From an uncultured virus (IMG/VR IMGVR_UViG_3300042453_004632) (lineage: Duplodnaviria > Heunggongvirae > Uroviricota > Caudoviricetes), in IMG/VR virus record IMGVR_UViG_3300042453_004632: 64,000 nt of DNA. The stretch is one strand, 5' to 3'. The position numbers and the translations under genes are program-made. The notes under the pieces are model-generated. The model ran no database searches, had not been told where the DNA came from, and worked only from the letters and a program-made list of their open reading frames with translations. Shown here one piece after another: positions 5,244 through 60,828 of this stretch; within the stretch, counting starts at the first letter, position 1; every line of letters begins with the position of its first letter.

Positions 5244-6344
5244 CTAGGAACCAGCCAGTTCTTTCTCCGCCGTCTTTAGTGCCATGCTGATCGTGTCGTC
5301 CATGTCCAAGTACTTATAACTGCCCAGCCTGCCTGATATTATGACGTTTTTTTCTTGTTCGGCAAGATCGCGGTATTTCCTGTACAGGGAGGTGTTTCGC
5401 TCGTCGTTGATCGGGTAGTAGGGGTCCTTGGTCTCCCTCCAATCCACAGAGTACTCCCTGCTGATTATTGTGTTCTCAAGATCGGGGTTCTCAAAGTGCT
5501 TGTGCTCCACGATCCTTGTCCACGGGGTCTCTAGGTCGGTGTAATTAACGCACGAGTGGCCCTGGAAGTCTCCCTTCAGCTCCTCGTGTTCCCATTTCAG
5601 GCTCCTGTACTCGAGTTCCCCGAAGTTGTGGTTGAAGTACTGGTCTATGCCTCCGCAGAACACGAGTCTGTCCGCGTAGTCTTGCCACTTGCCCCTAACC
5701 TCTTCAAAATCAACTCCCAGTTCAACCTTTATCCCATCAAGCATGTTCTCAACCATCCTTGTGTAGCCACCGATGGGGATGCCTTGGTAGGTGAGGTCGT
5801 GGAAGTAATCGTCGTTGAAGGTGTATCGCACCGGCAGCCTCTTTACGATGCTGGCCGACAGTTCCCTTGGATGCTTGTTCCACTGTTTGGTTGAGTAGCC
5901 TTCGATGAACGTCTCGTAGAGCGTCTTTCCTATCACCGACAGGCACCATTCCTCCATGTTCTTCGGGTTTTCGCAAGGAACCTTTTCTTCTTCCACCCTC
6001 TTCCTTGCCTCCTCGGGCGTCCTTACTCCCCACAATTGACTCATGGTCATGAGGTTGATAGGGAAACTGTACATCTTGCCTTTGAAGTTCACAATTCCCT
6101 TGTGACGGTAGTTATTGAATGACGCGAAGCGATTGACGTAATCCCAGACGTTTTTCTTGTCAGTATGCCAGCAATGGCAACCATAGGCGTGCACAGTTAC
6201 TCCATTGACATTCTTAGTGTAGACATTCCCGGCAATATGGTCTCTACGATCAATGACCATCACGCTTTTGTCCTTCTCCTTGGCTTGTTGGGCGAATGTT
6301 GCCCCAAAAATGCCCGCACCGATAACCAGATAATCATGTTTCAT
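5244..6344 (-). CDS. glf: UDP-galactopyranose mutase
   Basis: YLVIGAGIFG FAD motif, HIAGN, YGCH, YSTKQW, YQGIP..GYT, LEYRSL, TRIVEHKHF, PYYP, GRLGSYKYLDMD; start moved to MKHDYL. Confidence 0.95.
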   Translation of the reverse strand: MKHDYLVIGAGIFGATFAQQAKEKDKSVMVIDRRDHIAGNVYTKNVNGVTVHAYGCHCWHTDKKNVWDYVNRFASFNNYRHKGIVNFKGKMYSFPINLMTMSQLWGVRTPEEARKRVEEEKVPCENPKNMEEWCLSVIGKTLYETFIEGYSTKQWNKHPRELSASIVKRLPVRYTFNDDYFHDLTYQGIPIGGYTRMVENMLDGIKVELGVDFEEVRGKWQDYADRLVFCGGIDQYFNHNFGELEYRSLKWEHEELKGDFQGHSCVNYTDLETPWTRIVEHKHFENPDLENTIISREYSVDWRETKDPYYPINDERNTSLYRKYRDLAEQEKNVIISGRLGSYKYLDMDDTISMALKTAEKELAGS

Positions 6345-11442: not shown

Positions 11443-12479
11443 TGAGACTCAACGAAGAGCAGAAATTCGTGATCCGCGAGGTCATGAAACTGCGTAAGCC
11501 CGTCCAAGTAGTTTCAGGTTACGCAGGAACGGGCAAATCAACGCTTATAAGACACCTCTCCCAGTTGCTTCCCAACTTCGCGGTGTGTGCGTTTACGGGC
11601 AAGGCCGCGAACGTGTTGAGGATGAAGGGAATACCGGCCAAGACCATCCACAGCCTCATATACGACGCAAACAAGGATGGCGACGGCAAATTTTATTTCT
11701 CACTTACAGGCTCGTTGGACTTTGACGGAATCATAGTGGACGAATCGTCCATGGTGAGCGAGTATTTGTACCGCGATCTCAAGTCCTTCGGAAAGCCAAT
11801 CGTATTCGTTGGGGACCACGGACAATTGGAACCCATAGGCGACAAGTTCAATATCATGTCCGAGCCGGATTTCATTCTGGAGACCATACATCGGAACGCG
11901 GGCGAGATAGCCCATTTCGCAGAATACATAAGGAAAGGCTTCAAGCCCTCAAGTTGGGCCATAAGGAACGGCCCCGGGAAGAAGATCAAGTTCGTTCCCA
12001 AGTTCTCCTACGGACCAGTGGCCTCGTCTGTGGATCAGGTAATATGCGCCTACAACAAGACAAGGGCGGAGGTCAATCATTCTGTCCGTTCAAACCTCGG
12101 CAGGGGTTTGGGCCCGGAGGAAGGCGACAGGGTGATGTGCCTGAGGAATGACTCCGCAAAGGGTCTCTTCAACGGAATGCAGGGCGTCATAGATCATATC
12201 TATCCCAATGACTTCATGCTGTTCAGGTCTGATGAAAGCGGCTTTGAAATCTCGTTCGACAGGTCCGTGTTCAATCAAGTCAAGTATGAATTTGACGGCG
12301 ACCGCGATTCTCCCATGCCCTTTGATTACTGCTACGCGGTCACATGCCATAAATGCCAAGGGTCAGAGTATGAAAGCGTTCTGGTACTTGAGCAAAAATG
12401 CGACCTTTGGGACCACAGGAGATGGGCGTATACGGCGGCCTCGAGGGCCAGAGAAAAACTTTTCTGGTGCGAATCGTAA
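11442..12479 (+). CDS. RecD/Dda-like SF1B DNA helicase
   Basis: GYAGTGKS Walker A, AFTGKAA, TIHSLIY, VDESSM, GDHGQL, YAVTCHKCQGSEY, YTAASRA. Confidence 0.92.
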   Translation: MRLNEEQKFVIREVMKLRKPVQVVSGYAGTGKSTLIRHLSQLLPNFAVCAFTGKAANVLRMKGIPAKTIHSLIYDANKDGDGKFYFSLTGSLDFDGIIVDESSMVSEYLYRDLKSFGKPIVFVGDHGQLEPIGDKFNIMSEPDFILETIHRNAGEIAHFAEYIRKGFKPSSWAIRNGPGKKIKFVPKFSYGPVASSVDQVICAYNKTRAEVNHSVRSNLGRGLGPEEGDRVMCLRNDSAKGLFNGMQGVIDHIYPNDFMLFRSDESGFEISFDRSVFNQVKYEFDGDRDSPMPFDYCYAVTCHKCQGSEYESVLVLEQKCDLWDHRRWAYTAASRAREKLFWCES

Positions 12480-12514
12480 GAGTTATGGTAGTCCAAAGGA
12501 CTTAGATTTGGACA

Positions 12515-13381
12515 TTATTTCATAAGTACATAGTCCAAAAAACATTGCTCCATTTGAAAATTTGGAAAACCGTCCAATTTAAATAGTTTTTTTAATCTAT
12601 TTACAATGATTGGGTTGTCGCTGAAGAAGTTCTCTACACTTTGTCTTTCCACATTTTCTTCTTGAACCTTTATCAAACCCGATTCTTCTATCATCTCAGA
12701 ATAATTACCCAATGGAAACAACACTTTGTTTGTTTTTTCTTCAGGAGTGAATCCCATTTCGTCCAACTCTTTTTCAGTGAAAATTAAATGCACAAATGCC
12801 TTGTTTACTTTTCTGTAGCAGTGACCGCCGTGTCTTCCGCACCAAGGATGACATCTTAAATAAATCTTACCCCCATCACCCAGTAGGGACTTCGCATCAG
12901 TTAATGCCTTTACTGAATCTTCGGCGTGGTCTAATACGTCATAAATAAGAATTACATCGTATGGTCCTTTTTCTTTTACCTTCTGAAAATCTGTTGTGAG
13001 GAGATACTCGTTTTCCACTTCCCATTCAAAATTGCAATTTGAGGGTTTTTCAATTTCATAACCCACACTGATTGCGGTGTCTTTTGAAAGATATTTGACC
13101 ACATGACCTTCTCCACACCCAAAATCTAAAAACTTTTTGTTTGTCAATTTTTCATCAAAAACAATATCCACAATTCCTTCCGCACGATCCATTTTTTCAT
13201 CTTCTGAATTCCTATCAGCAATTTGAAAATCAAAAACAGACTCCGGCCAATCTTCTGAATTTAATAAATTTTTCAAGACACTAAGTTCGTTTGTTTCATC
13301 AAAATCAGACAGAATTTCTTTTATTTCATTTATTTTATCTGTTATTTCATTGACTATATTTATTATTTTGTTTTTGTCCAT
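12515..13381 (-). CDS. Class I SAM-dependent methyltransferase (paralog of 24052..24933)
   Basis: FLDFGCGEG, YDVILIYDVLDH, RCHPW.GRHGGH. Confidence 0.88.
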   Translation of the reverse strand: MDKNKIINIVNEITDKINEIKEILSDFDETNELSVLKNLLNSEDWPESVFDFQIADRNSEDEKMDRAEGIVDIVFDEKLTNKKFLDFGCGEGHVVKYLSKDTAISVGYEIEKPSNCNFEWEVENEYLLTTDFQKVKEKGPYDVILIYDVLDHAEDSVKALTDAKSLLGDGGKIYLRCHPWCGRHGGHCYRKVNKAFVHLIFTEKELDEMGFTPEEKTNKVLFPLGNYSEMIEESGLIKVQEENVERQSVENFFSDNPIIVNRLKKLFKLDGFPNFQMEQCFLDYVLMK

Positions 13382-13465
13382 TTCAATGCCTTTGTGACTA
13401 TTCAAGAAAGATTCTGCCTTTGATAATATAGTTCCGAGTTCTCTTCTTTGGTTAAAACCTATTGG

Positions 13466-14146
13466 TTAAAACCTATTCTTGTAGGCGTTCCAAAAGCGTG
13501 AAAACCCAGAGTTTAGACCCACAAAGTGATTGCCGAATTTTCCGATTTTAATGTCCTCCACACAAACATAGATTTGTTCTTTGTTTATTAATTCATAGCC
13601 TTGTTTGTTGAAAATATAGGCAACGATTGCTTGTTCTTCAAAATGAGAATTGTTCCAATTTATTTCAAATTTTTTAATTGCACTATTTATCTCTTTTTTA
13701 AAATCAAATCCGGGCGGTATCCCGAACATTCCAGAATTTAAAAATATAGGATCATTTATTTCGTATTGGAGTGTTCCGTAACTTTTTTCATATGCTTCCG
13801 TTATGAAAAATGATTTATTTTTAATATATTGTTCAAAATTTATTTTTTTGTGGAGAACAAGATCGTTGTCTATGAAAATTTCATAGCTATCCATTTTTAT
13901 TCTAGGAGGGTAAAGCTTCCAGCAAGGGTTGTTTGTTGGTCTTATTGTAATTTCATCAACGTATTCTTCTTGGTTTAAAAGACGAACAGGCAACTTGTTT
14001 ATCTTGTTTTTGTTTAAATTATTATAACAAACATAATAATCAAATTTTTCTTTGTAAAAATTAACTATATTTTTAACTGATTTTTTAAGACAATCTATTC
14101 CTTCCTTTGAACAATCACCTATAGTCCATCTGATTATTTTTTTCAT
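13466..14146 (-). CDS. Putative glycosyltransferase (paralog of 15970..16749)
   Basis: RWTIG, WKLYPPRI, IDND DxD, NSGMFGIPPGF, EEQ. Confidence 0.7.
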   Translation of the reverse strand: MKKIIRWTIGDCSKEGIDCLKKSVKNIVNFYKEKFDYYVCYNNLNKNKINKLPVRLLNQEEYVDEITIRPTNNPCWKLYPPRIKMDSYEIFIDNDLVLHKKINFEQYIKNKSFFITEAYEKSYGTLQYEINDPIFLNSGMFGIPPGFDFKKEINSAIKKFEINWNNSHFEEQAIVAYIFNKQGYELINKEQIYVCVEDIKIGKFGNHFVGLNSGFSRFWNAYKNRF

Positions 14147-14152
14147 ATTTTT

Positions 14153-15040
14153 CTAAATTAAATTAGATTTTTTGGCAAAATCATATAGAAAATAATTTAA
14201 TGATAATTCTTTCTTGTTCATTGACTTCAAATAGAAATGTGATTCAAGTATTAGTTTTTCATCATTCAATTTGGCCTCTGCCTCTTTCAAGTCTTCAAAG
14301 TACAAAGGGTATGTATCTCCCAAATATTCAATACAACCTGGCATTTTTTTGACAACAATCGGAACGTTGAGAGATATGCATTCGTTTATAAGATTGCAAG
14401 CGGCCACATCATATAAGTCCAAAAAAACAACCGACCTACATAGTAAATCTATGTAAAATTCTGGTTTCAAATACCCTATTTCTTCGGCAAATCCCTTTGA
14501 ATATTTTTTCATTTCTTGTAGATCAAACTCACAATGCCGAGGCTTTAGTATTATTTTTTTCTTGTTTGTGACTATTTGCAAAAAAGAATGATATTTTCTA
14601 AGTTGTTGACCTGCATGTACTACTTGCTCTCCACATTTCCATTCTTTTTTGTAATTCAAAATCGGATGATATAAGAAATTTACATTTGTTTTTAAATTTA
14701 AATCAATATATTTTTTTACATTTTTTGTGAATACAAATATTCCTTGGCAACTTTTAATTTTTTCTTTGAAGTACTTATTATCCTTTAATTTTGATATGGG
14801 TAAAATTTTATTTTTGTATTTATTAGGATATTCATTTTCGGGATAAGATATAGTGTTGTGTAAAAAACCAATCCATTTTCCTTCTATTGATTCTTCTTTT
14901 ATGGCTCTGTCCAACCATTCGTAGCAGTTTATTTTTGATCTAGAATCATGAAAAAATTTTAGTTTTTTAGAAATTTCACCCCAATTGCCTTCGGAAAGAT
15001 GATTGCTGGGTATAAAATTAATTTTCTTGGCTTTTATCAT
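14153..15040 (-). CDS. Putative GT-B-type glycosyltransferase
   Basis: WIGFLH, GQQLR, VFLDLYD.AACN.I.EC...NVPIVV, EYLG..YPLYF. Confidence 0.65.
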   Translation of the reverse strand: MIKAKKINFIPSNHLSEGNWGEISKKLKFFHDSRSKINCYEWLDRAIKEESIEGKWIGFLHNTISYPENEYPNKYKNKILPISKLKDNKYFKEKIKSCQGIFVFTKNVKKYIDLNLKTNVNFLYHPILNYKKEWKCGEQVVHAGQQLRKYHSFLQIVTNKKKIILKPRHCEFDLQEMKKYSKGFAEEIGYLKPEFYIDLLCRSVVFLDLYDVAACNLINECISLNVPIVVKKMPGCIEYLGDTYPLYFEDLKEAEAKLNDEKLILESHFYLKSMNKKELSLNYFLYDFAKKSNLI

Positions 15041-15909
15041 TTATTGTTTTTCAAGAGTTGGCTAACGGGAATCAATGGGGAGGGAAAATTTTCAATTCTT
15101 ATTATTTTTGAAGGACACATTGAGCAATGAAATATTTGTTTTTGCTCATAAAAATCTTTGATCTCCGAATAAGTTGCTCTAGGTTCTAGTGCCTGACCTT
15201 GCAGATTGCCATCTCTATACCCCAAATATGGCAACCATTTTTCGTTTAATTTGAATTTTTTGTCTTGCATTTGCAGGTAGGCAACATTTGGACACTTCCA
15301 TAATTTTCCCAAAAATATTTGACGACAAAATTTAACCGAACATTTGTTCCAACTTTCGCCGGGATTGTTGTCTTCAAAGGGCATCATTTCATTTCCAAAT
15401 CCCTTATATGTTTGTTTCCATGTATTTTTAAAACTGTTGGTCCAATTGACTTGAAGACGAGGATGGTTTTTTTGCCATTTTTTTACCAATTCTCTAACAG
15501 GATTTATTTTCTCTTCAAACTCTTTTGTATCATCATGCACCGAAAGTCTTAATTGAACATTGTGTTTTTCCATTATTCTGGGTAGATGTGGGTGATTTTT
15601 TAGAAAAAATCCATTTGTTATTATTCTTATTCTTGACCCGCCCCAGATTTTAGCAGATTTCTCGGTGATTTTTGTTAGTTCTTGATTCATGGTTGGCTCA
15701 CCACCCATTATGCTGAACCAGTTAGGTTTAATTCTTCTGCTCCAAGGTATGGTCCAATCTTCAAACTCTTGAAGACTGAGTTGCCCTTTGTGTCCATGAT
15801 TTGAATAATGGTTGCAACTCTGGCATGTCAAATTGCAAGAATGAGATACGTGAATTTCTATATTGCTTTCAAAGTCGGTTGGCACATATTTTTTATGAAG
15901 ATTTAGCAT
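15037..15909 (-). CDS. Radical SAM protein
   Basis: CNLTCQSC (CxxxCxxC), GGEP, ITNG; additional C-terminal cysteines. Confidence 0.9.
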   Translation of the reverse strand: MLNLHKKYVPTDFESNIEIHVSHSCNLTCQSCNHYSNHGHKGQLSLQEFEDWTIPWSRRIKPNWFSIMGGEPTMNQELTKITEKSAKIWGGSRIRIITNGFFLKNHPHLPRIMEKHNVQLRLSVHDDTKEFEEKINPVRELVKKWQKNHPRLQVNWTNSFKNTWKQTYKGFGNEMMPFEDNNPGESWNKCSVKFCRQIFLGKLWKCPNVAYLQMQDKKFKLNEKWLPYLGYRDGNLQGQALEPRATYSEIKDFYEQKQIFHCSMCPSKIIRIENFPSPLIPVSQLLKNNK

Positions 15910-15969
15910 ACTACATTATATAAGCCTTTGTTGGAAAACTCAATTCCTTAAGGGTATTGAATTCAAAAA

Positions 15970-16749
15970 ATGAAAAAAATCTTTAGGTGGACAATAGGTA
16001 ATTCCTCAAATTTAGGATTTGAGGTTCTTAGAAAATCCGTAAAATTTGCAAAAAAAAATTTTGAAGCACTTGGTTTTGATTTATATATTTGCTCTAATTC
16101 CAATGAAGTAAAAGTTAGTGAAATTTGCCAAGAATTTGAAATAAAACATATAGTTCAAAACAACGAAAACAATTTTTTTAAAAAATTCGGAGGATCTTTT
16201 TGGAAGCTGTGTCCTCCTAGGATTAACATAGATTCCTATGAAATTATTTGCGACAATGATGTTATTTTAAAAAAAATTCCAGAAGAAATTGAATTATTTT
16301 TAAAGTCAAATGTACCAATTATATGTGAAGAAAAAATTTTTTGTTTTGGAAAATATTCAAAATTCATAAAAAATCCATACAATAGTGGCATTTATGGATT
16401 GCCGCCTGGATTCAATTTTGAACAAAAAATAATTCAAAAATGGAAGGAAAAGGGATCTATTGAAAAGTTAAGAAGTTATAAAGATGAACAAGGATTGATT
16501 ATTCTTTGTCTTTTAGAATTTAATCCTATAAAGATTCCTTTAGACAAGGTGTGTTATTTATTTAAATTTGGATCTCCTGTAAAAGCAGATTATGAAAAGG
16601 TTTTGGAAGATAATTTTGAAAGTCAGATTTTACAAAATTTGATTTTTGAAAGGCCCAAAACTAAAAATAAAAGTATTTTTCACTTTATTGATTCAAACAA
16701 AATTGAAGATCATTTTTATTGGAATTCTTATAAAACAAAGTTTTTATAA
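15970..16749 (+). CDS. Putative glycosyltransferase (paralog of 13466..14146)
   Basis: RWTIG, WKLCPPRI, CDND, NSGIYGLPPGF, DEQG. Confidence 0.7.
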   Translation: MKKIFRWTIGNSSNLGFEVLRKSVKFAKKNFEALGFDLYICSNSNEVKVSEICQEFEIKHIVQNNENNFFKKFGGSFWKLCPPRINIDSYEIICDNDVILKKIPEEIELFLKSNVPIICEEKIFCFGKYSKFIKNPYNSGIYGLPPGFNFEQKIIQKWKEKGSIEKLRSYKDEQGLIILCLLEFNPIKIPLDKVCYLFKFGSPVKADYEKVLEDNFESQILQNLIFERPKTKNKSIFHFIDSNKIEDHFYWNSYKTKFL

Positions 16750-17573
16750 GAATTTTGAAAAGTTCTTTTACAATGTTGTCCATTTCCGTCCTTTCCGAAA
16801 AAACCTCCGAAAAAAACATTGTTTCCCAAATCTGACTTGTGTTCATAATCAAAATCTAAAAACTGATGGACTTTTTGCTTTTCTGCAAAAATTTGAACGG
16901 CCAGAGTTTGTATCATTGCATCTCCCCACCGATTAAAATAATATCCTCCGGTTAAATCAACCGCCTTCATAAAATTTTGAACATCTTTTCTCAACCAAAA
17001 TTCTGTTTTGGAAATATGAAAGTTATTGTAATATCCTACTTTGTTCCAGCAATTATTCTTGAAATTTTCAAATAAAAATTTGGGTTTTATATTTTTTTCA
17101 GACAAATATTTTAAGAAAAATTTTTCTAATTCTCTAACGCACATGTTGTGTTCAATTGTTTTTACTCTATAGGCATATTCTTTTTCGTTATCTTTCATGA
17201 AATTAAATATATCATATTCTATTTTTGATAAAATATAAGAATCATCATCTAATCTCATGTAATATTCATAATTTTTTATTAAATCAAAGATTGAATAAGA
17301 AAAAAATCTACACATGTGCCTGTAACCTATTGAATGTCCATACAAATCTACGGAGATTTTTTCTTTTTCAATAAAACTAGGAATTTTAAAATCAACTCTA
17401 TAGAATAAAATATTTTTATTTTTACAAACCTTCTTGAAATTGAAATTATTTTCATGAAATATTACAATCGGATAATTAAAATTTTTATTAAAGTTTAAAT
17501 GCAATAACTCTAAACTCTTATTTAATTTTTCTATTGTTCTATTATGAGATAGATATATAATTGCTGAATTCAT
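16728..17573 (-). CDS. GT15 (KRE2/MNT1-like) alpha-1,2-mannosyltransferase
   Basis: GYRHMCRFFS, YYMRLDDDS, YNNF, GG.Y..RWGDA. Confidence 0.88.
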   Translation of the reverse strand: MNSAIIYLSHNRTIEKLNKSLELLHLNFNKNFNYPIVIFHENNFNFKKVCKNKNILFYRVDFKIPSFIEKEKISVDLYGHSIGYRHMCRFFSYSIFDLIKNYEYYMRLDDDSYILSKIEYDIFNFMKDNEKEYAYRVKTIEHNMCVRELEKFFLKYLSEKNIKPKFLFENFKNNCWNKVGYYNNFHISKTEFWLRKDVQNFMKAVDLTGGYYFNRWGDAMIQTLAVQIFAEKQKVHQFLDFDYEHKSDLGNNVFFGGFFGKDGNGQHCKRTFQNSYKNFVL

Positions 17574-18244
17574 ATAAAGATTTTCTCAATGTATTTCAAT
17601 TTTTTTTCATAATAAGTTATTAGATTTTTATTTCTATAAATCATTTGTTTTGAAATAAAATAATTTATATTATTGCCTTCTTTTAAAATATTCTCAGGAA
17701 ATTTTTTATTTTTTATAATTAGTCCTTTTTTTTCAATTTTTACTATGGTATTTTTAAAATCTTTTACAATATCTTCATACTTAATAAAAATATAGTTTTT
17801 GACTTTGTTTGGCATATCTTCTAATAGAAATTTATTTTTAAAATGCCTCAATTCAAAAATATTTTTATATCTAAGGCCTGTGTAAATGTTTCTATCAAAT
17901 AAATTTTCTTTGCTCCAAGTTTTATATGAGTGCAAAGCATCGTTCACACTGAACCATTCGTCGTTCAAGAATTTGTTTATTTTTTCTTCTTCTGTTATAT
18001 TTTCTAAATATTTTAAGGGCAGATGGTGTTTTTTTATATAAAGTGAATTAATCCAATCAAATAAATTTCTTGTAATGCCGATAAACAAAACATCTTCGGA
18101 GTGACTTAGGTCATTAAATCCAAAGAAATGTTTCCATCCATATTTCCAAGTAATATCAACATTGAAATTAGATAAAATTAATTTTTCAATGTAATTTGTG
18201 CCAGAACATCTTTCTCCATATATAGTAAAATGATTAATCTTCAT
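17570..18244 (-). CDS. Sulfotransferase-like protein
   Basis: GERCSGTNY PAPS-binding-like loop, GWKH, R..WI.S, IKYED. Confidence 0.65.
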   Translation of the reverse strand: MKINHFTIYGERCSGTNYIEKLILSNFNVDITWKYGWKHFFGFNDLSHSEDVLFIGITRNLFDWINSLYIKKHHLPLKYLENITEEEKINKFLNDEWFSVNDALHSYKTWSKENLFDRNIYTGLRYKNIFELRHFKNKFLLEDMPNKVKNYIFIKYEDIVKDFKNTIVKIEKKGLIIKNKKFPENILKEGNNINYFISKQMIYRNKNLITYYEKKLKYIEKIFI

Positions 18245-18915
18245 ATCATTGTATTCTTCAAATGCGTTTTTAAAAAAACTATTTTCTCTTCCTTGCTCAT
18301 ACCAGGACAATGTATCAAAAAATCGCCTTTTTTATAAGTTGTTTTCACTGCGTGGAGATATTTTCTTGGCAATAACTTTATTCTTTGTCTAAAGTCTAGA
18401 TTGGTGTCATATAAATAATGAAATGCTGACTGCTCAAAAAATTTCCACTGATCAGGCGGTGCGTTAAATCCACCGTCGTCATTTATTCCACAAGATGGAT
18501 ATCCGTGATAAGGACTATCAATGAATTGTTTTTGATTAAACCAAACTTCCAAAAAATCTATTGACCATCTATCATTCTTGATTATGATTCCATTCGTTCC
18601 TATATGGCCCTCATGAGGAAGCGGCCCCGTCAGAATGTTGTAGTTCAAATTTTCTTTTATCAAATCCCTTATGTCAAAAGAATAGTTTAAGATTAGGGTG
18701 TCAGTATCAAGATATAAAATGTAGTCATACTCTGGCAGGTGTTTTTTGATTCCAAGTATTCTGCCCCAATGCTGTGTTCGGTCAGACAGATCGCTGAAGT
18801 TGTGAATAACAAAATCCATGTCATATTTTTTTGCATAATTTGATTTTGATTTTTTTGTTATTTGTAATATGTCCGAATAATTAATATTACAACAATCTAA
18901 AATTGCTATTTTCAT
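18241..18915 (-). CDS. GT34-like (galactosyl/mannosyl) transferase
   Basis: YAKKY, HWGRI, YLDTD DxD, NG.II, FEQSA; start at MKIAILD. Confidence 0.75.
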   Translation of the reverse strand: MKIAILDCCNINYSDILQITKKSKSNYAKKYDMDFVIHNFSDLSDRTQHWGRILGIKKHLPEYDYILYLDTDTLILNYSFDIRDLIKENLNYNILTGPLPHEGHIGTNGIIIKNDRWSIDFLEVWFNQKQFIDSPYHGYPSCGINDDGGFNAPPDQWKFFEQSAFHYLYDTNLDFRQRIKLLPRKYLHAVKTTYKKGDFLIHCPGMSKEEKIVFLKTHLKNTMI

Positions 18916-18988
18916 GATTTTGTTTCTAACAAGGCAACGCCTCAATTCTATCATAGATAGATAGAACAACAATACAAGGAAATTAGAA

Positions 18989-19675
18989 GTGGAGAATAAA
19001 ATAAAAAATAATTTGTTCACATGTTGGCACACCAACAATCTTCCACCTTTGATGAAAAAAAATATTGAATTAAATATTGAAAAAAACAAAGAAATTATTT
19101 TCAATATTTATGATCAAAAAAAATGTGAAGATTTCATAAGAAAAAATTTCAATAAAAAAGTATTAAAGGCCTATAGACAATTAGTGCCTTGTTCATATAA
19201 ATCTGACTTGTGGAGATTTTGCATACTTTATCTACTTGGTGGTATTTATATTGACATAAAGTACAATTGTGTAGAAGGATTCAAGTTCACAGATATTTTA
19301 AATGATGAATATTTTGTAGAAGAATCAAAATATTGGAAGGGAGTAAATGAAAGGATTTACACTGGCCTTATATGTGTATGTCCGAGAAATGAAATAATGA
19401 ATTGCTGTATAGAAAGAATAATCAGCAATGTTGAATCAAATTATTACGGAAAATGTAGCTTGGACCCAACAGGTCCTGGAGTGTTGGGGAGTTGTGTTCC
19501 AAAGAATGTAAAAAAACAATTAAATTTTGAAGATCCCAAAATATTCTATGATAAAAGATTAATTTTGAATTACTACAACGGCTATAGATTAGAACAAAAA
19601 AAATTTCAAAAACTTCCTCATTATGAAATACTATGGCAACAAAATAAAATTTATAGTAAAGTAAAATTTATATGA
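18989..19675 (+). CDS. GT32/Och1-like glycosyltransferase (DxD sugar-binding)
   Basis: YKSDLWRFCILYLLGGIYIDI, TGPGVLG. Confidence 0.88.
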   Translation: MENKIKNNLFTCWHTNNLPPLMKKNIELNIEKNKEIIFNIYDQKKCEDFIRKNFNKKVLKAYRQLVPCSYKSDLWRFCILYLLGGIYIDIKYNCVEGFKFTDILNDEYFVEESKYWKGVNERIYTGLICVCPRNEIMNCCIERIISNVESNYYGKCSLDPTGPGVLGSCVPKNVKKQLNFEDPKIFYDKRLILNYYNGYRLEQKKFQKLPHYEILWQQNKIYSKVKFI

Positions 19676-20265
19676 ATCTAATGCAAAATAGGTTTTCAAA
19701 AATAAACATTGAAACCAATCAATTGAATGGCCTTAATGATTTGATCAAAGATTTTTTGAATAAATCAAGTATTGTTTGTGAAATTGGATCTTTCAACGGA
19801 GTTTCTACTGAATTATTTGCCAATAAATGCAAAAAAGTTTTTAGTATTGATGTTAATTGCACAAAAAGATTAAAAGAAATAATTGATAAATATGATATAG
19901 ATTATTTTAGAAAAGAAAGTATAGAGGCCAGCACCATTTTTGAAGACAATTTCTTTGATTGCGTTTATCTAGACAGCAATCACACTTACGAGCATGTTTG
20001 TGAAGAAATTAGGGTGTGGTGGCCCAAAGTAAAACACAAAGGAATACTCGCGGGTCACGATTATCTGTCAGATAAAATGATAGAATATATTTCAAAATTA
20101 AAAATAGATTTATCTTATAATTGGACAACAGATCCTATTAAAAACAAAATAAAAAAAGGCCAAGGAGTAAAGCATGCAGTCAATGTTTTTTTTAAAAACA
20201 GAAAGATTTATCTTTACAAAGATTCTAGTTGGGCCAAAATAAAATATTGTAAATTAATACTATGA
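19672..20265 (+). CDS. SAM methyltransferase (Methyltransf_24-like)
   Basis: EIGSFNGVS, VYLDSNHTYE, WWPKVK.GILAGHDY. Confidence 0.88.
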   Translation: MNLMQNRFSKINIETNQLNGLNDLIKDFLNKSSIVCEIGSFNGVSTELFANKCKKVFSIDVNCTKRLKEIIDKYDIDYFRKESIEASTIFEDNFFDCVYLDSNHTYEHVCEEIRVWWPKVKHKGILAGHDYLSDKMIEYISKLKIDLSYNWTTDPIKNKIKKGQGVKHAVNVFFKNRKIYLYKDSSWAKIKYCKLIL

Positions 20266-21092
20266 AAAATTTATTGATATGCATATCTTTTTACTACAAA
20301 AAAGAAAGATATAAATATCTCAATGCCTTAATAAAAAATTTTCTTTCTTATGATGTTGATTTGGATATAATAATTGATACAAACAACAAAGATGCAATTA
20401 ATCTAATTTACGAAGAGTTTTCAAAAGAAAAAATTAAAATTTTTGTTCATGATAATTTAGAAAATAATTTTTTTCTGACTTGGAAACATAGACAACACTT
20501 CAAAAATAATATATTAAAATATAAAAATTTTTATTACACAGAAGACGATATTTATTTGTCTTTCAAAAACTATAAAAATTATATTCTTGAATTTTCAAGA
20601 CTATGGCCAAATTATATTCCTTCTTTTGTCAGAATAGAATCTTATGAAAAAGATTTATATCATACGGATTCTTATGTTAAAACTTTTATTGACAAAAATG
20701 ATATTGTGAAAATACAAGATCAAATATATGTTTCCATACATAATTCTTATCATGGATTTTGGATAATGCCACAAGAAGCACTTTTAAAATGTTTGAATGA
20801 AAAATTTTGTCAACCAATTCATTCGGAGAAAACTAGAGAAATTGCGGCATCTTTTGGTTTACAAGTAATAAACTTGAAAAGAAATAAATCCAAATTATTT
20901 GTGCACATAAATAATTTATTGAATTCAAATGACATAAAGAAGGAAGGATTGTTGAAATTAGAAAAATACAAATACGAAATATCAGACACCTCCTACAGTT
21001 TTCATTTACCAAACAATTACATACATGATAAAAAATACAATTTAGCAAAAATAAAAATACAAGATGTGGTAAAGTTTAAAAAAATATTATGA
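20262..21092 (+). CDS. Putative glycosyltransferase
   Basis: LTWKHR, YYTEDDI, P.FVR.E, HLPNNY. Confidence 0.6.
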   Translation: MKNLLICISFYYKKERYKYLNALIKNFLSYDVDLDIIIDTNNKDAINLIYEEFSKEKIKIFVHDNLENNFFLTWKHRQHFKNNILKYKNFYYTEDDIYLSFKNYKNYILEFSRLWPNYIPSFVRIESYEKDLYHTDSYVKTFIDKNDIVKIQDQIYVSIHNSYHGFWIMPQEALLKCLNEKFCQPIHSEKTREIAASFGLQVINLKRNKSKLFVHINNLLNSNDIKKEGLLKLEKYKYEISDTSYSFHLPNNYIHDKKYNLAKIKIQDVVKFKKIL

Positions 21093-21652
21093 AGTATTTA
21101 GTTTACGGATTGCAGAGTAGTGGAGCCACTCTTTTTTCTTATTTTCTATCACAAAATAGGAATACTGTAGGGATCCCCGATTTATGGGCAGATTATTGGT
21201 GCCCTGATTGCTCCCATGTAAAGACAGACGTGGTGATCAAATGTGTTGTAACCAAAGGGTGTCCTCTTGAAGGCCATGTTGAAAGATACAAACCCGATGT
21301 GAAGATTTTGTTTTTGAGGAACCTCAAGGACAATAAACAAAGGCTTCTTCAAAAAAGATGGAAAAATCACAATGGAACTGTTGATGATAAAATTAAAATA
21401 ATAGAAAAAATAGATAAGAGAATTTTTGATTTTGTAATATTGTATGAAAATTTTATATGTAAAAAAATACCAAGCGAATTCTCAAAAGATAATTATTTAT
21501 TTAATAGAGGAAAGAAAGAAATAGTTCGTTTTAATTTTGAAAATTTCAAGTGGTCTGAAGAAAATATAAATAAAAAATGGGGGTTCGGAGAAATTCATTT
21601 TTCTAAAAATGATACCATAAAGCTCGCCAGTAGAACAAAAGTTTTTTTATAG
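21089..21652 (+). CDS. Sulfotransferase-like protein
   Basis: GLQSSGAT loop, ILFLR, ILYE. Confidence 0.55.
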   Translation: MKYLVYGLQSSGATLFSYFLSQNRNTVGIPDLWADYWCPDCSHVKTDVVIKCVVTKGCPLEGHVERYKPDVKILFLRNLKDNKQRLLQKRWKNHNGTVDDKIKIIEKIDKRIFDFVILYENFICKKIPSEFSKDNYLFNRGKKEIVRFNFENFKWSEENINKKWGFGEIHFSKNDTIKLASRTKVFL

Positions 21653-21698
21653 TCAAAATAATAATAAATTAGCAACTATTTAGTTAGTTAAATAACCT

Positions 21699-22046
21699 AT
21701 GAAAAACCTGTGCCTCAAGAACGAGAAGCAGATGGGCCTCTTCAACGGGATGCAGGGGGATGTGGCCATGATGTACGACGGGGACGTGTTCGCCTTTAAG
21801 GCCGACGGGTTCGTGGAGGAGGTCCCGTTTGAGAGGAACACCTTCAACCAAGTAAAGTACGAGTTTGAGCACGACGGCCCCGTTCCCTTCGATTACGCCT
21901 ACGCCATCACCGCCCACAGGGCACAAGGGTCCGAGTACGACAGGGTCATGGTCTTGGAACAGCGTTGTGACCTGTGGGACCACAAGCGGTGGGCCTACAC
22001 CGCGCCTTCTAGAGCGAAAGAGCTACTTTATTGGTGCGAGACTTAA
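21699..22046 (+). pseudogene. C-terminal fragment of a RecD/Dda helicase (diverged second copy of about 12130..12479)
   Basis: CLKN...GLFNGMQG, FNQVKYEF, PFDYAYAITAHRAQGSEY, DLWDHKRWAYTA; no Walker A. Confidence 0.88.
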
Positions 22047-50049: not shown

Positions 50050-50404
50050 GGGCTCGTACTGGTTTCGACGTAGTGAGGAGGATCAAGACTGCACGCCGAG
50101 GTTGGTCAGCTGGCCTCGTTAAAAGCAGACCAGAGCCTTAACCGGCACTGTTTCTTACGCAATGGCTGCCTGATAAAAAGGGCAACCACGGACCTAGGGG
50201 GCGAGCGGGAAGCGCCCGAAGGTCCGTCGCCAAATCCCGCTGGTCGCTCTGTGTTCCGACCTACGGAGCGATGAGAAAATAGGTTGGAAAGTCCTTGGGA
50301 ACCCTGTCCGTTGGGGTCTCAAGGTCTGACAAAAAACGGAACAAGCGTGTAGAGGTCTTTTTTCGAATCATCCACGGACAGGGGTTCGACTCCCCTCGAG
50401 TCCA
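50050..50404 (+). ncRNA. ssrA: tmRNA; predicted tag (A)GTVSYAMAA
   Basis: 5' GGGCTCG..GGTTTCGAC; 3' GGGGTTCGACTCCCC-CGAGTCC-A; G3-U wobble in acceptor stem; tag ORF 50144..50173 after TTAACC. Confidence 0.93.
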
Positions 50405-50439
50405 CTTTGATTGATACTAGATTGAATCAGGAGGAATAT

Positions 50440-52593: not shown

Positions 52594-53241
52594 ATGATGA
52601 AAAGGACTTCAAAGAGATGGTCGGAATCCGAGATTGAACAAATATCCAAGAATATTCGGCCTGCCGGGAGATCAATCAGGAGTTTTTCTACAAAGAAGGT
52701 GAGGCTCGGACTTCGCGAAAAAAGGAAACATAGACCTAAATGGTCCGAAGAGAATTTGAAAACTCTTAGGTGCCTAGTGGAACAGGGATATTCTGCCAAA
52801 AAGATAAGCGAGATGGGAGTTTGGGATCAAAGCAGAAATTCAATACAGAAAATGATGTGCAGGCTCGGAATAGCCAAGAAAAACAAGGTCTTTAAATTTC
52901 CCATGGAAGTCAAGCAGAAATTCAAGAATTTCCTTCTTAAGAACTGGGAGGGGAAGACGCCGCGTGATCTGATGGAGTTATGGAACAGAGAAAACTCAAG
53001 ATTTCCTTCAAACAAGAGCAAGGTTGTTCATTATCTGACCGTCTTGGGAATCAAGATTTCTTACGGAGAAGTTCAAAAAATAAATGTGCTTCGCAAAAAA
53101 GAAGAACTGATAAGAAAAAGCGGAGCGTCCGTGGAACAGAAAATAAAGATGGAAAGAATAAAAATGATGCAGAAAAGAGTCAAGCAAAATAAGGACATCT
53201 GGACTGGTGTGAAAAATCCAGAGATGCCAGATGAGGAATAA
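52594..53241 (+). CDS. Basic HTH/Myb-like DNA-binding protein
   Basis: KRWSESE and KWSEEN repeats; GYSAKKISE. Confidence 0.6.
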   Translation: MMKRTSKRWSESEIEQISKNIRPAGRSIRSFSTKKVRLGLREKRKHRPKWSEENLKTLRCLVEQGYSAKKISEMGVWDQSRNSIQKMMCRLGIAKKNKVFKFPMEVKQKFKNFLLKNWEGKTPRDLMELWNRENSRFPSNKSKVVHYLTVLGIKISYGEVQKINVLRKKEELIRKSGASVEQKIKMERIKMMQKRVKQNKDIWTGVKNPEMPDEE

Positions 53242-53427
53242 AAAAGCCACCCCCGAAGGGGTGGCCTGTTCAGTCTCGGTCGGATTAGAACCGTCTGAAC
53301 TTCGGGTGTTTGGCTAGTGAAGCCGACTACCGCCCGATGAGTCGCCGTTTCTGCCGGACGCCTCCATGCAGACTTGGAGTGTCTTGTTTATGCGGCAGCA
53401 CAAGCACGGCAAGTTGTTGACTTGACA
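53241..53427 (-). ncRNA. Putative structured ncRNA of unknown class
   Basis: Own promoter TTTACA-16-TATAAT (53460..53433); about 6 consecutive hairpins; terminator GCCACCCC-TTCG-GGGGTGGC-TTTTT; no credible ORF. Confidence 0.6.
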
Positions 53428-53500
53428 GAGGCATTATAACCCGACCAAGGGGTCTGTAAAGTGTTTTCTCAAGGATTTCAATGTGGGGAAAATAGGAAAA

Positions 53501-53806
53501 ATGGAAAACGATCTTCGAAAAACAGTTGAGCCGGATTCCAGTAAGGCATGGGCTCCCGAAATCAATCGTAAGCCCCAGACAAATCCGATAGACAAATGCA
53601 ATCCCGAGGAATTGACAGACCCCATGAGTCTGTACATCTATGCGGCACGGGTCATCGGTCGCAAGTTGCCCGAAAAGGCACACGCCAAGATGGAGGAAAT
53701 CCAGAGGAATGACCCTGAAAATTCATTCACCAAGGCTTATTTCAATTTTTTGTCAAAGGACACCCTGTGGGGTAAAATCAAGGGATTCCTCGGAGCAAAA
53801 AGATGA
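53501..53806 (+). CDS. Hypothetical protein, LPxxLHxxM family
   Basis: RKLPEKAHAKM...KAYFNFL. Confidence 0.65.
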   Translation: MENDLRKTVEPDSSKAWAPEINRKPQTNPIDKCNPEELTDPMSLYIYAARVIGRKLPEKAHAKMEEIQRNDPENSFTKAYFNFLSKDTLWGKIKGFLGAKR

Positions 53807-56124: not shown

Positions 56125-56310
56125 ATGAGAACAATCATCTTTTTCATGCTTTGTCTCGTCGTAGGCTGCGGAGAAAAACCGTGCACGTGCGGCAATCCCA
56201 AATGCGGGATAGAATGCCGCAACAGGTGCGAAGGAACCAGATGCCTGATCGGCGATCCGTGCTGCGAGAAATGCTCATGCGGTTCCAAGCCGCCTTTGAA
56301 GTTGAAGTAG
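56125..56310 (+). CDS. Small Cys-rich putative lipoprotein
   Basis: Lipobox-like VVGC; about 12 Cys after the signal peptide. Confidence 0.6.
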   Translation: MRTIIFFMLCLVVGCGEKPCTCGNPKCGIECRNRCEGTRCLIGDPCCEKCSCGSKPPLKLK

Positions 56311-60484: not shown

Positions 60485-60549
60485 AAAATTTTCTGATGCC
60501 CCCTTTGCAGTCCTGCCGAATCGGACTACAATGAATTTGGATCAATGAA

Positions 60550-60819
60550 GGGTCATTAGCTCAATGGTAGAGCAACCGGCTTCAAATAGGAGTGCCTAAG
60601 AGGAAACTTTTAGAGTAGAACCGCTCAAATTCGGCGAACGCTTTGAAATGCCAACGCCGAGCCAAGCCCGCAAGGGAAGGTGTAGAGACTTGACGGGCGG
60701 CACCTAAAGCCGAAAGGTCATGGTGAAGGCAAAGTCCAAAGCCACAGTCGGAAGACGTAGTGAAAACTATAGTGACTTTGTTAACCGGTTGGTTGTAGGT
60801 TCGACCCCTACATGACCCA
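60550..60819 (+). tRNA. tRNA-Lys(TTT) split by a group I intron (exons 60550..60582 and 60781..60819)
   Basis: Acceptor GGGTCAT/ATGACCC, A73; spliced anticodon arm ACCGG-CTT|TTAA-CCGGT; T-arm GTAGG-TTCGACC-CCTAC. Confidence 0.9.
60583..60780 (+). mobile_element. Self-splicing group I intron (IC3, Azoarcus-like), 198 nt, no ORF
   Basis: Core segments CAAATTCGGCGAA, CAACGCCGAGCCAAGC, GAAGGTGTAGAGACT, CACCTAA, ATGGTGAAGGCA, AGTCCA; P1 CTT|C:GGAG with U-G pair; terminal G. Confidence 0.92.
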
Positions 60820-60828
60820 CTAAATATC

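Follow-up and report, generated by a model that had tools for sequence, protein, structure and literature searches.

A gene for a small structured RNA lies on the minus strand of DNA from an uncultured tailed virus. It is a conserved, stand-alone unit, and covariation among 13 family members supports five helices, arranged as two irregular arms, a 3' hairpin and a terminator. We examined it in a 64,000-nt stretch of this DNA (IMG/VR record IMGVR_UViG_3300042453_004632; hereafter the window), following up a reading made from the letters alone (the sequence-only reading), which had proposed a free-standing structured non-coding RNA outside the catalogued families. That proposal stands, with no Rfam match and clear covariation. 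By sequence comparison the RNA is a new, uncatalogued family of narrow distribution within one clade of huge phages, and it takes a place among the known orphan phage RNA genes.

The window looks like a portion of a huge phage genome. Among sequencing runs, the five that best contain its DNA are lake metagenomes, and two of them are possible sources; contigs from four DNA sets covered the window patchily and left the RNA uncovered. Its genes are dense and short and family matches are scarce; it also encodes tRNAs, a tmRNA, a group I intron, PTH2, an RlaP-like nucleotidyltransferase, an RNA ligase, ClpX, a sigma factor and an acyl carrier protein. A low-GC island (24-37% against ~49%) at 12001-22000 carries glycosyltransferase, methyltransferase and radical SAM genes. 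At 56125-56310 (+) lies the gene for a small, Cys-rich protein whose N-terminus is hydrophobic; by eye, it seemingly recurs in a related phage (L021, ~5650-5830, -).

The RNA gene sits between genes for a 215-aa protein (52594-53241, +) and a 107-aa protein (53483-53806, +). Both are on the plus strand, which confirms that the RNA unit runs opposite to its neighbours. The 215-aa protein has repeated W-x-x-x-E units and a weak match to a D5-like transcription regulator; its 47 homologs, some annotated as GcrA (PF07750), occur on contigs of up to 490 kb. The promoter and the UUCG terminator (stem 53267-53244, a UUCG-containing loop and a U run) are located where the sequence-only reading had placed them, and all of its stem strings and pseudoknot coordinates are literally present in the sequence (Table 1). 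The promoter ranks first among 6 sites in 51-56 kb and is one of 4 sites in the window that match the sigma-70 consensus at 11/12 positions, with 24 sites matching at least 10/12. The window's tmRNA promoter (50012, TTTACT-16-TATAAT) is of the same type and has the same 16-bp spacer. Model R2 scores 140.6 bits on 53240-53426, the window sequence being itself part of the R2 training set.

Table 1. Predicted features of the RNA locus (window coordinates; features ordered 5' to 3' in the RNA sense)
Feature	Position	Strand	Remarks
Sigma-70-type promoter TTTACA-16-TATAAT	53433..53460	-	11/12 match
Predicted transcript, ~187 nt	53240..53426	-	5' end predicted 7 nt past the -10 box
Variable 5' leader	53415..53426	-	nearly missing in L173 if the L173 promoter call is correct
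Invariant ACU directly 5' of P1	53412..53414	-	outside the patterns used in the collection scans
Arm 1	53344..53410	-	P1, internal loop and P2
P1	53410-53406 with 53348-53344	-	100% paired; 2/5 pairs changed on both sides
Arm-1 7x2 internal loop	53405-53399 opposite AA 53350-53349	-	
P2	53398-53394 with 53355-53351	-	100% paired; 2/5 pairs changed on both sides
Optional insertion hairpin P2a	53357..53383; 53383-53375 with 53366-53357	-	
Candidate pseudoknot helix GACU/AGUC	53343-53340 with 53328-53325 (region 53325..53343)	-	extendable to 5 bp
Arm 2	53302..53337	-	P3, internal loop and P4
P3	53337-53333 with 53306-53302	-	covarying
Possible 2-bp GU/AC extension of P3	53330-53329 with 53309-53308	-	
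P4 hairpin	53324-53321 with 53315-53312	-	covarying
P5 hairpin	53268..53300; 53300-53295 with 53273-53268	-	sequence varies, structure kept
Terminator hairpin and U run	53240..53267	-	abuts the stop codon of the convergent 215-aa gene

The family as aligned here comprises 13 distinct members, the window and 12 from viral or metagenome contigs with phage-like genes. We first collected 37 relative loci by way of the DUF6915 protein. BLAST of the RNA against 28 DUF6915-derived records gave one clear match (E 6.5e-8), in the 381-kb record G012, where the RNA has its own promoter and terminator and is oriented the same way as its neighbours. The ligase, ClpX and sigma factor of G012 are 67%, 56% and 45% identical to those of the window, which identifies G012 as a true relative. 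Core-pattern scans gave 5/5 true matches in viral contigs (3 distinct) and 12/17 in metagenomes; duplicates (L171, L180, L174 and repeated viral copies) were removed before alignment. The 13 members were ascertained by exact patterns, G012 alone having been found pattern-free, and invariance at the 19 positions fixed by the metagenome pattern (AGAAAC, GACUCA, GGUAGUC) is therefore built in.

Mean pairwise identity in the alignment is 0.63 (range 0.50-0.94), and the member loci span 33-56% GC. Invariant columns make up 43 of the 70 in the core; 19 positions are pattern-fixed and the remainder free. A scan that fixed the 5' arm only returned 33 loci, with the same 5 viral members and no variant 3' arm, which is a weak control (3 distinct sequences). 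A further pattern scan returned 48 loci, its members being the 5 already known.

Searches elsewhere were negative. Against cultured phages, blastn gave short matches only, whether the query was the window RNA or L060, and plasmids gave no match to the RNA. GTDB genomes yielded 0 matches to a strict pattern and 11 to a relaxed one, none of which scored with model R2. The RNA was found in 0/151 sampled genomes from the phylum of a Planctomycetota MAG, a scan with no positive control. With the flanking 215-aa protein as bait we recovered 0 loci, then 3 with its alignment, and the RNA was in none. The complete genomes G017 and G009 also lack the RNA; both are without close orthologs of the window ligase, ClpX and sigma factor, so this absence is uninformative on whether the RNA is dispensable. 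As a test of host lineage, ClpX gave identities of 50-57% in 9 unrelated genomes; matches of the acyl carrier protein were uninformative.

RNAalifold gave the same helices from 4 members as from all 13. From 5' to 3', the order is leader, ACU, arm 1 (P1, the 7x2 loop, P2 and the optional P2a), GACUCA, arm 2, P5 and terminator. Over the five helices (33 pairs, n=13), 97.9% of cells are paired, and 16 pairs (45 cells) have changed on both sides. Covariation among homologs, a check that the sequence-only reading had proposed, is clear in the 13 members: the score is 0.371 against 0.207 in shuffles, 0/500 shuffles reach it, and slid controls do not exceed 0.084. Because the shuffle test ignores relatedness, joint changes were also counted on the tree. 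Columns 103/155 (a P3 pair) and 165/203 changed jointly 3 times each, columns 114/147 (a P4 pair), 115/146, 162/206 and 163/205 twice each, and P1 and P2 show one joint change each. P5 is 95.4% paired, with 6/7 pairs changed on both sides, and P2a, present in 5/13 members, is 88.6% paired, with 4/9 pairs so changed. The 299 stem cells include 27 G-U or U-G pairs versus 2 mismatches, which favours an RNA read from the minus strand.

This fold retains the 3' part of the one read from the single sequence and replaces its 5' half. UCGGG/CCCGA, GGCU/AGCC and GUUCAG/CUGAAC are supported by covariation in the 13 members. CUCCA/UGGAG lies inside the covarying hairpin P2a and is real to that extent, but as part of an optional insertion it is limited to 5/13 members. 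CAAGU/ACUUG is not conserved (36.9% paired, with 455/500 shuffles as high). For the stem GUGCUUGU/ACAAGACAC, the partner strand is missing in 8/13 members, the other 5 are 90% pairable with zero two-sided changes, and its 3' strand covaries within P2a instead. In place of these, the alignment gives RCCGU/ACGRY and CUGYY/RRCAG, each with compensatory changes.

The 8-bp loop pseudoknot of the sequence-only reading is not supported as part of the main fold by the alignment. Of its cells 89.4% are paired, a level that shuffles match (305/500), and its two outermost pairs are broken in 8/13 and 3/13 members; a scan built on it gave 19 matches, none homologous by nhmmer, and missed the true relatives. 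Its inner 6 bp (GCUGCY/GGUAGU) can form in 13/13 members, against 0.04 expected after column shuffling, but without compensatory change. This helix and P2 are mutually exclusive, and its energy as an isolated duplex is equal or nearly equal to that of P2 in 12/13 members, as would be expected of a two-state switch in which the 6 bp alternate with P2 and GACU/AGUC. We consider such a switch, which would be compatible with the other readings discussed below, doubtful: 46% of the helix cells are G-U, there are zero two-sided changes, the 3' strand is pattern-fixed, and in L181 a compensatory change in P2 leaves P2 at -3.1 kcal/mol while the 6-bp helix falls to +0.3 kcal/mol.

A different crossing helix, GACU/AGUC, is a possible pseudoknot in the RNA fold, to judge from the alignment. 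It crosses P3, leaves a 2-nt CA loop and is compatible with all covarying helices, an arrangement that has the geometry of an H-type knot. It pairs in 13/13 members and never varies, its bases being fixed by the search pattern, and with a chance expectation of ~0.4 helices of at least 5 bp it is within chance for its length.

Chance intergenic hairpins, or a piece of a protein-coding frame, would be the simplest account of the locus. Two results point that way. Without its terminator the window sequence folds unremarkably (z -1.31, 20/200 shuffles as good; z -3.14 with the terminator), and a minus-strand 118-aa ORF (53327-53683) overlaps the RNA. The ORF has no Pfam or PHROG match, and the spacings between conserved blocks fall in every residue class mod 3 across the 13 members, so no reading frame is kept. 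Chance is also hard to reconcile with a covariation score that none of the 500 shuffles reaches and that far exceeds the slid controls, with joint changes that recur on the tree, and with persistence in differing gene contexts; we regard this account as largely refuted and extremely improbable. The RNA combines the marks of a stand-alone phage non-coding RNA: an intergenic position, a promoter and terminator, covarying structure and no conserved frame.

Since the single sequence without its terminator is not unusually stable, homologs were required to define the fold. Folded singly, several members (L170, L175, L177, L178) fail to recover much of the consensus, which suggests that the consensus fold needs tertiary contacts or a partner. 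At the 3' ends of L170, L175 and L177, an extended terminator hairpin repeats GUGCUG, the conserved word of arm 1; this second copy may compete for P2 and so account for the weak single-sequence folds of these three members.

A hairpin and U run, read by eye, terminate all 13 members, and a promoter site matching at least 9/12 positions lies 7-18 nt 5' of the conserved ACU in 8/13, each of these sites being reached by no more than 4% of 200 random windows. The other 5/13 have no such promoter; among them is L167, in which the RNA follows a tmRNA and an acyl carrier gene on the same strand. A promoter in 8/13 members and a terminator in 13/13 rule out a cis-acting leader, and a cis-acting riboswitch or leader was likewise rejected on the grounds that there is no consistent downstream gene. 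In the window, L166, L179 and L181 the gene downstream of the RNA is convergent; elsewhere it differs. Flanking genes vary by member (helicase and ATPase, an HD protein, a MYG1-like protein, an acyl carrier protein, unknowns), so no dedicated phage partner travels with the RNA. In G012 a 303-aa ORF lies directly downstream of the RNA (L071, 2873-3781, +); it has no Pfam match and is not found beside other members, and from its sequence we presume a resemblance to IS110-type recombinases.

The RNA is associated with tRNA and tmRNA genes loosely, at the scale of the genome. A tmRNA lies within ~3 kb in 4/13 members, tRNAs are near in 3/13 and group I introns in 1/13, and 5/13 have neither tRNA nor tmRNA in the flanks examined. 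In G012 the tmRNA is 146 kb from the RNA, and G033 has zero tRNA matches over 144 kb. Several stable-RNA genes in these genomes merit description in their own right. The window tmRNA (50050-50407, +; 136.7 bits) was not called by ARAGORN and has the acyl carrier protein gene directly 3', a gene order common to the window and L167. At 60543-60823 (+) the window has a tRNA gene split by a group I intron (Rfam 60573-60760), also missed by ARAGORN; by eye, its joined exons could form an anticodon loop of the Lys(UUU) type. In L175, two group I introns that resemble each other, probably in tRNA genes, lie directly downstream of the RNA (1290-1478 and 1570-1761, -); their Rfam alignments end in A, not G, and the true 3' ends may lie beyond. 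A 134-nt tRNA match in L026 (5606-5739, -) is unusually long and could be a tRNA with an insertion.

Comparison with Rfam 15 (tRNA, tmRNA, 6S, SRP, RNase P, riboswitches, ribozymes, GOLLD, ROOL and manA included) matched no family to the window RNA; the best scores, 13-19 bits, were all terminator-like or spurious. The 12 homolog loci gave two terminator-end matches that overlap the RNA, far below the gathering score, and the Rfam check thus came out negative for the window and all 12. We found no description of the RNA in the literature, which does not prove it unpublished. In the searched part of the alignments of 10,006 candidate viral structured RNAs (PMC10690425), 3 core words and 3 contig identifiers had no match. 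The main text of a second report (10.64898/2026.10.21.760802) has no word beginning with 'phage'; its database could contain the RNA. E. coli rRNA, tmRNA and three group I introns showed no resemblance that survived 70 shuffled tests, and there is thus no evidence of sequence mimicry. A suspected likeness to a segment of 16S rRNA was not found against the E. coli rrnH operon, and likenesses to the kink-turn, RNase P P4, SRP Alu and GEMM were rejected when the alignment was inspected.

Several known phage RNAs are nonetheless comparable in kind. GOLLD and ROOL are described as stand-alone structured RNAs of phages and prophages, often near tRNA islands and of unknown function (10.1101/2024.12.08.627333). 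The present RNA is likewise stand-alone, phage-borne, structured and similarly placed near stable-RNA genes, but at ~187 nt with a 70-nt core it differs from these nanocages of ~660 to >800 nt. The manA and wcaG motifs are structured RNAs of aquatic phages and probable 5' UTR regulators, manA with a tentative pseudoknot (PMC2864571). The RNA shares the structured, aquatic-phage character of cyanophage manA and wcaG but ends in its own terminator, is without a fixed downstream gene and has no Rfam match. HDV-like theta ribozymes are small RNAs of phage tRNA regions that adjoin tRNAs and have a nested double pseudoknot (PMC10879173); our RNA is also a small structured phage RNA, but its helices stand in series, it carries a terminator of its own and it often lies far from tRNAs.

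The identity of GACU/AGUC to the P7 strands of the introns in the window phage and L175 raised the possibility that the RNA is what remains of a group I intron core, circularly permuted and without exons. As in that core, the candidate GACU/AGUC helix crosses an adjacent helix and is followed directly by a hairpin, and the cyclic succession of a helix, a P7-like strand, a crossing helix, a second P7-like strand and a hairpin resembles P6-P7-P3-P7-P9 (by eye and post hoc). The P7-type strings are present in 13/13 members, pattern-fixed and without covariation. P8, J6/7 and a bulged guanosine-site base, which characterize group I introns (also in the Rfam alignments), are absent; only 4 nt separate the P3 strand from AGUC, and P1 runs directly into GACU. 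Unlike group I introns, the RNA is intergenic, with its own promoter and terminator and without exons or splice sites. Profile blocks bearing GACU and AGUC, compared with three introns, gave nothing beyond shuffles, and model R1 did not match the window intron at E<=5. We regard a group I remnant as very unlikely.

A new class of ribozyme, with its own variable 5' leader (close to the invariant ACU) or a second RNA in trans as substrate, would explain the dense invariance around the two internal loops and the invariant ACU at the 5' edge of the fold. Like the hairpin ribozyme, the RNA has two arms with an internal loop in each, and its invariant AAAC and AGUC strands echo A22-C25 and G+1 of that ribozyme (PMC8216279). 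AAAC, the counterpart of A22-A23-A24-C25, occupies columns 86-89 in 13/13 members, where it is pattern-fixed and partly paired in P1. G8 is reported as perfectly conserved in 941 hairpin ribozymes (PMC8216279); in the 13-member alignment the strand that faces AGUC reads AAAC or AUAC and lacks a G, and no invariant A lies opposite AAAC (columns 20-28) as a counterpart of A38. The RNA thus has no counterpart of the general acid and base (A38, G8) described there. Unlike the hairpin ribozyme it belongs to a DNA phage, not to circular RNAs, and the loop sizes and connectivity differ. No ribozyme model of Rfam matched the window or the 12 homolog loci, and a promoter and terminator of its own leave little to process, unlike the situation of theta ribozymes beside tRNAs (PMC10879173). 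We give a ribozyme a low probability.

The same invariant, purine-rich internal loops could instead form ligand pockets. Short helices with such loops and a pseudoknot are typical of aptamers, and here they are joined by a possible pseudoknot, by two similarly built arms that could provide two pockets, and by the lack of a downstream gene to regulate. The RNA might then be a small-molecule sponge, soaking up a host signalling nucleotide or metabolite. Against this, no riboswitch family matched at E<=10 in the window or at E<=1 in the 12 homolog loci, and we know of no natural precedent for a stand-alone aptamer sponge RNA; we think this unlikely. Taken as one broader proposal, the RNA could represent a new functional class, a compact, doubly knotted molecule that is itself active, either as a new-class ribozyme or as a protein-free nucleotide sponge; in the latter form it would bind a host immune or stress nucleotide, be made early from its stable-RNA-type promoter and disarm the host. 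We attach to this proposal as a whole an appreciable but minor probability.

The size, promoter and terminator of the RNA are those typical of bacterial small RNAs, and it might act by base pairing with host or phage mRNAs. Its conserved unpaired stretches are only 2-7 nt long, however, and its long loops are its variable parts, which makes base pairing quite unlikely as its mode of action.

Tentatively, we favour a stand-alone, trans-acting RNA that is transcribed by the host polymerase and uses its conserved loops to bind a host factor that evolves slowly. Short loops that are strongly conserved across 33-56% GC, together with the lack of a co-travelling gene, fit a slow-changing partner encoded elsewhere, which would most simply be a host protein or ribonucleoprotein. 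The conserved loops are equally compatible with a ligand pocket or an active site, which counts against this host-factor reading. If it is right, a gene belonging to a clade of huge, mostly lake-derived phages would be transcribed by host RNA polymerase, its strong sigma-70 promoter resembling the one that precedes the phage tmRNA. The arms would pack compactly, probably through the GACU/AGUC pseudoknot and A-rich loop strands, and the conserved loop bases would form the surface that binds the host protein or ribonucleoprotein. The target would most likely lie in translation, RNA turnover or anti-phage defence, and during host takeover the RNA may serve as a decoy or a modulator.

Huge phages are known for their tRNAs and tmRNA, and few other RNA genes have been defined in them. 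The RNA described here is small and compact, with a supported fold and 13 natural variants, and lends itself to cheap, direct tests by probing, pull-down and assays of cleavage and ligand binding. Catalysis or a sponge-like action on a ligand would make it a new class; if it binds a host factor, it would point to an RNA-based route to host takeover.
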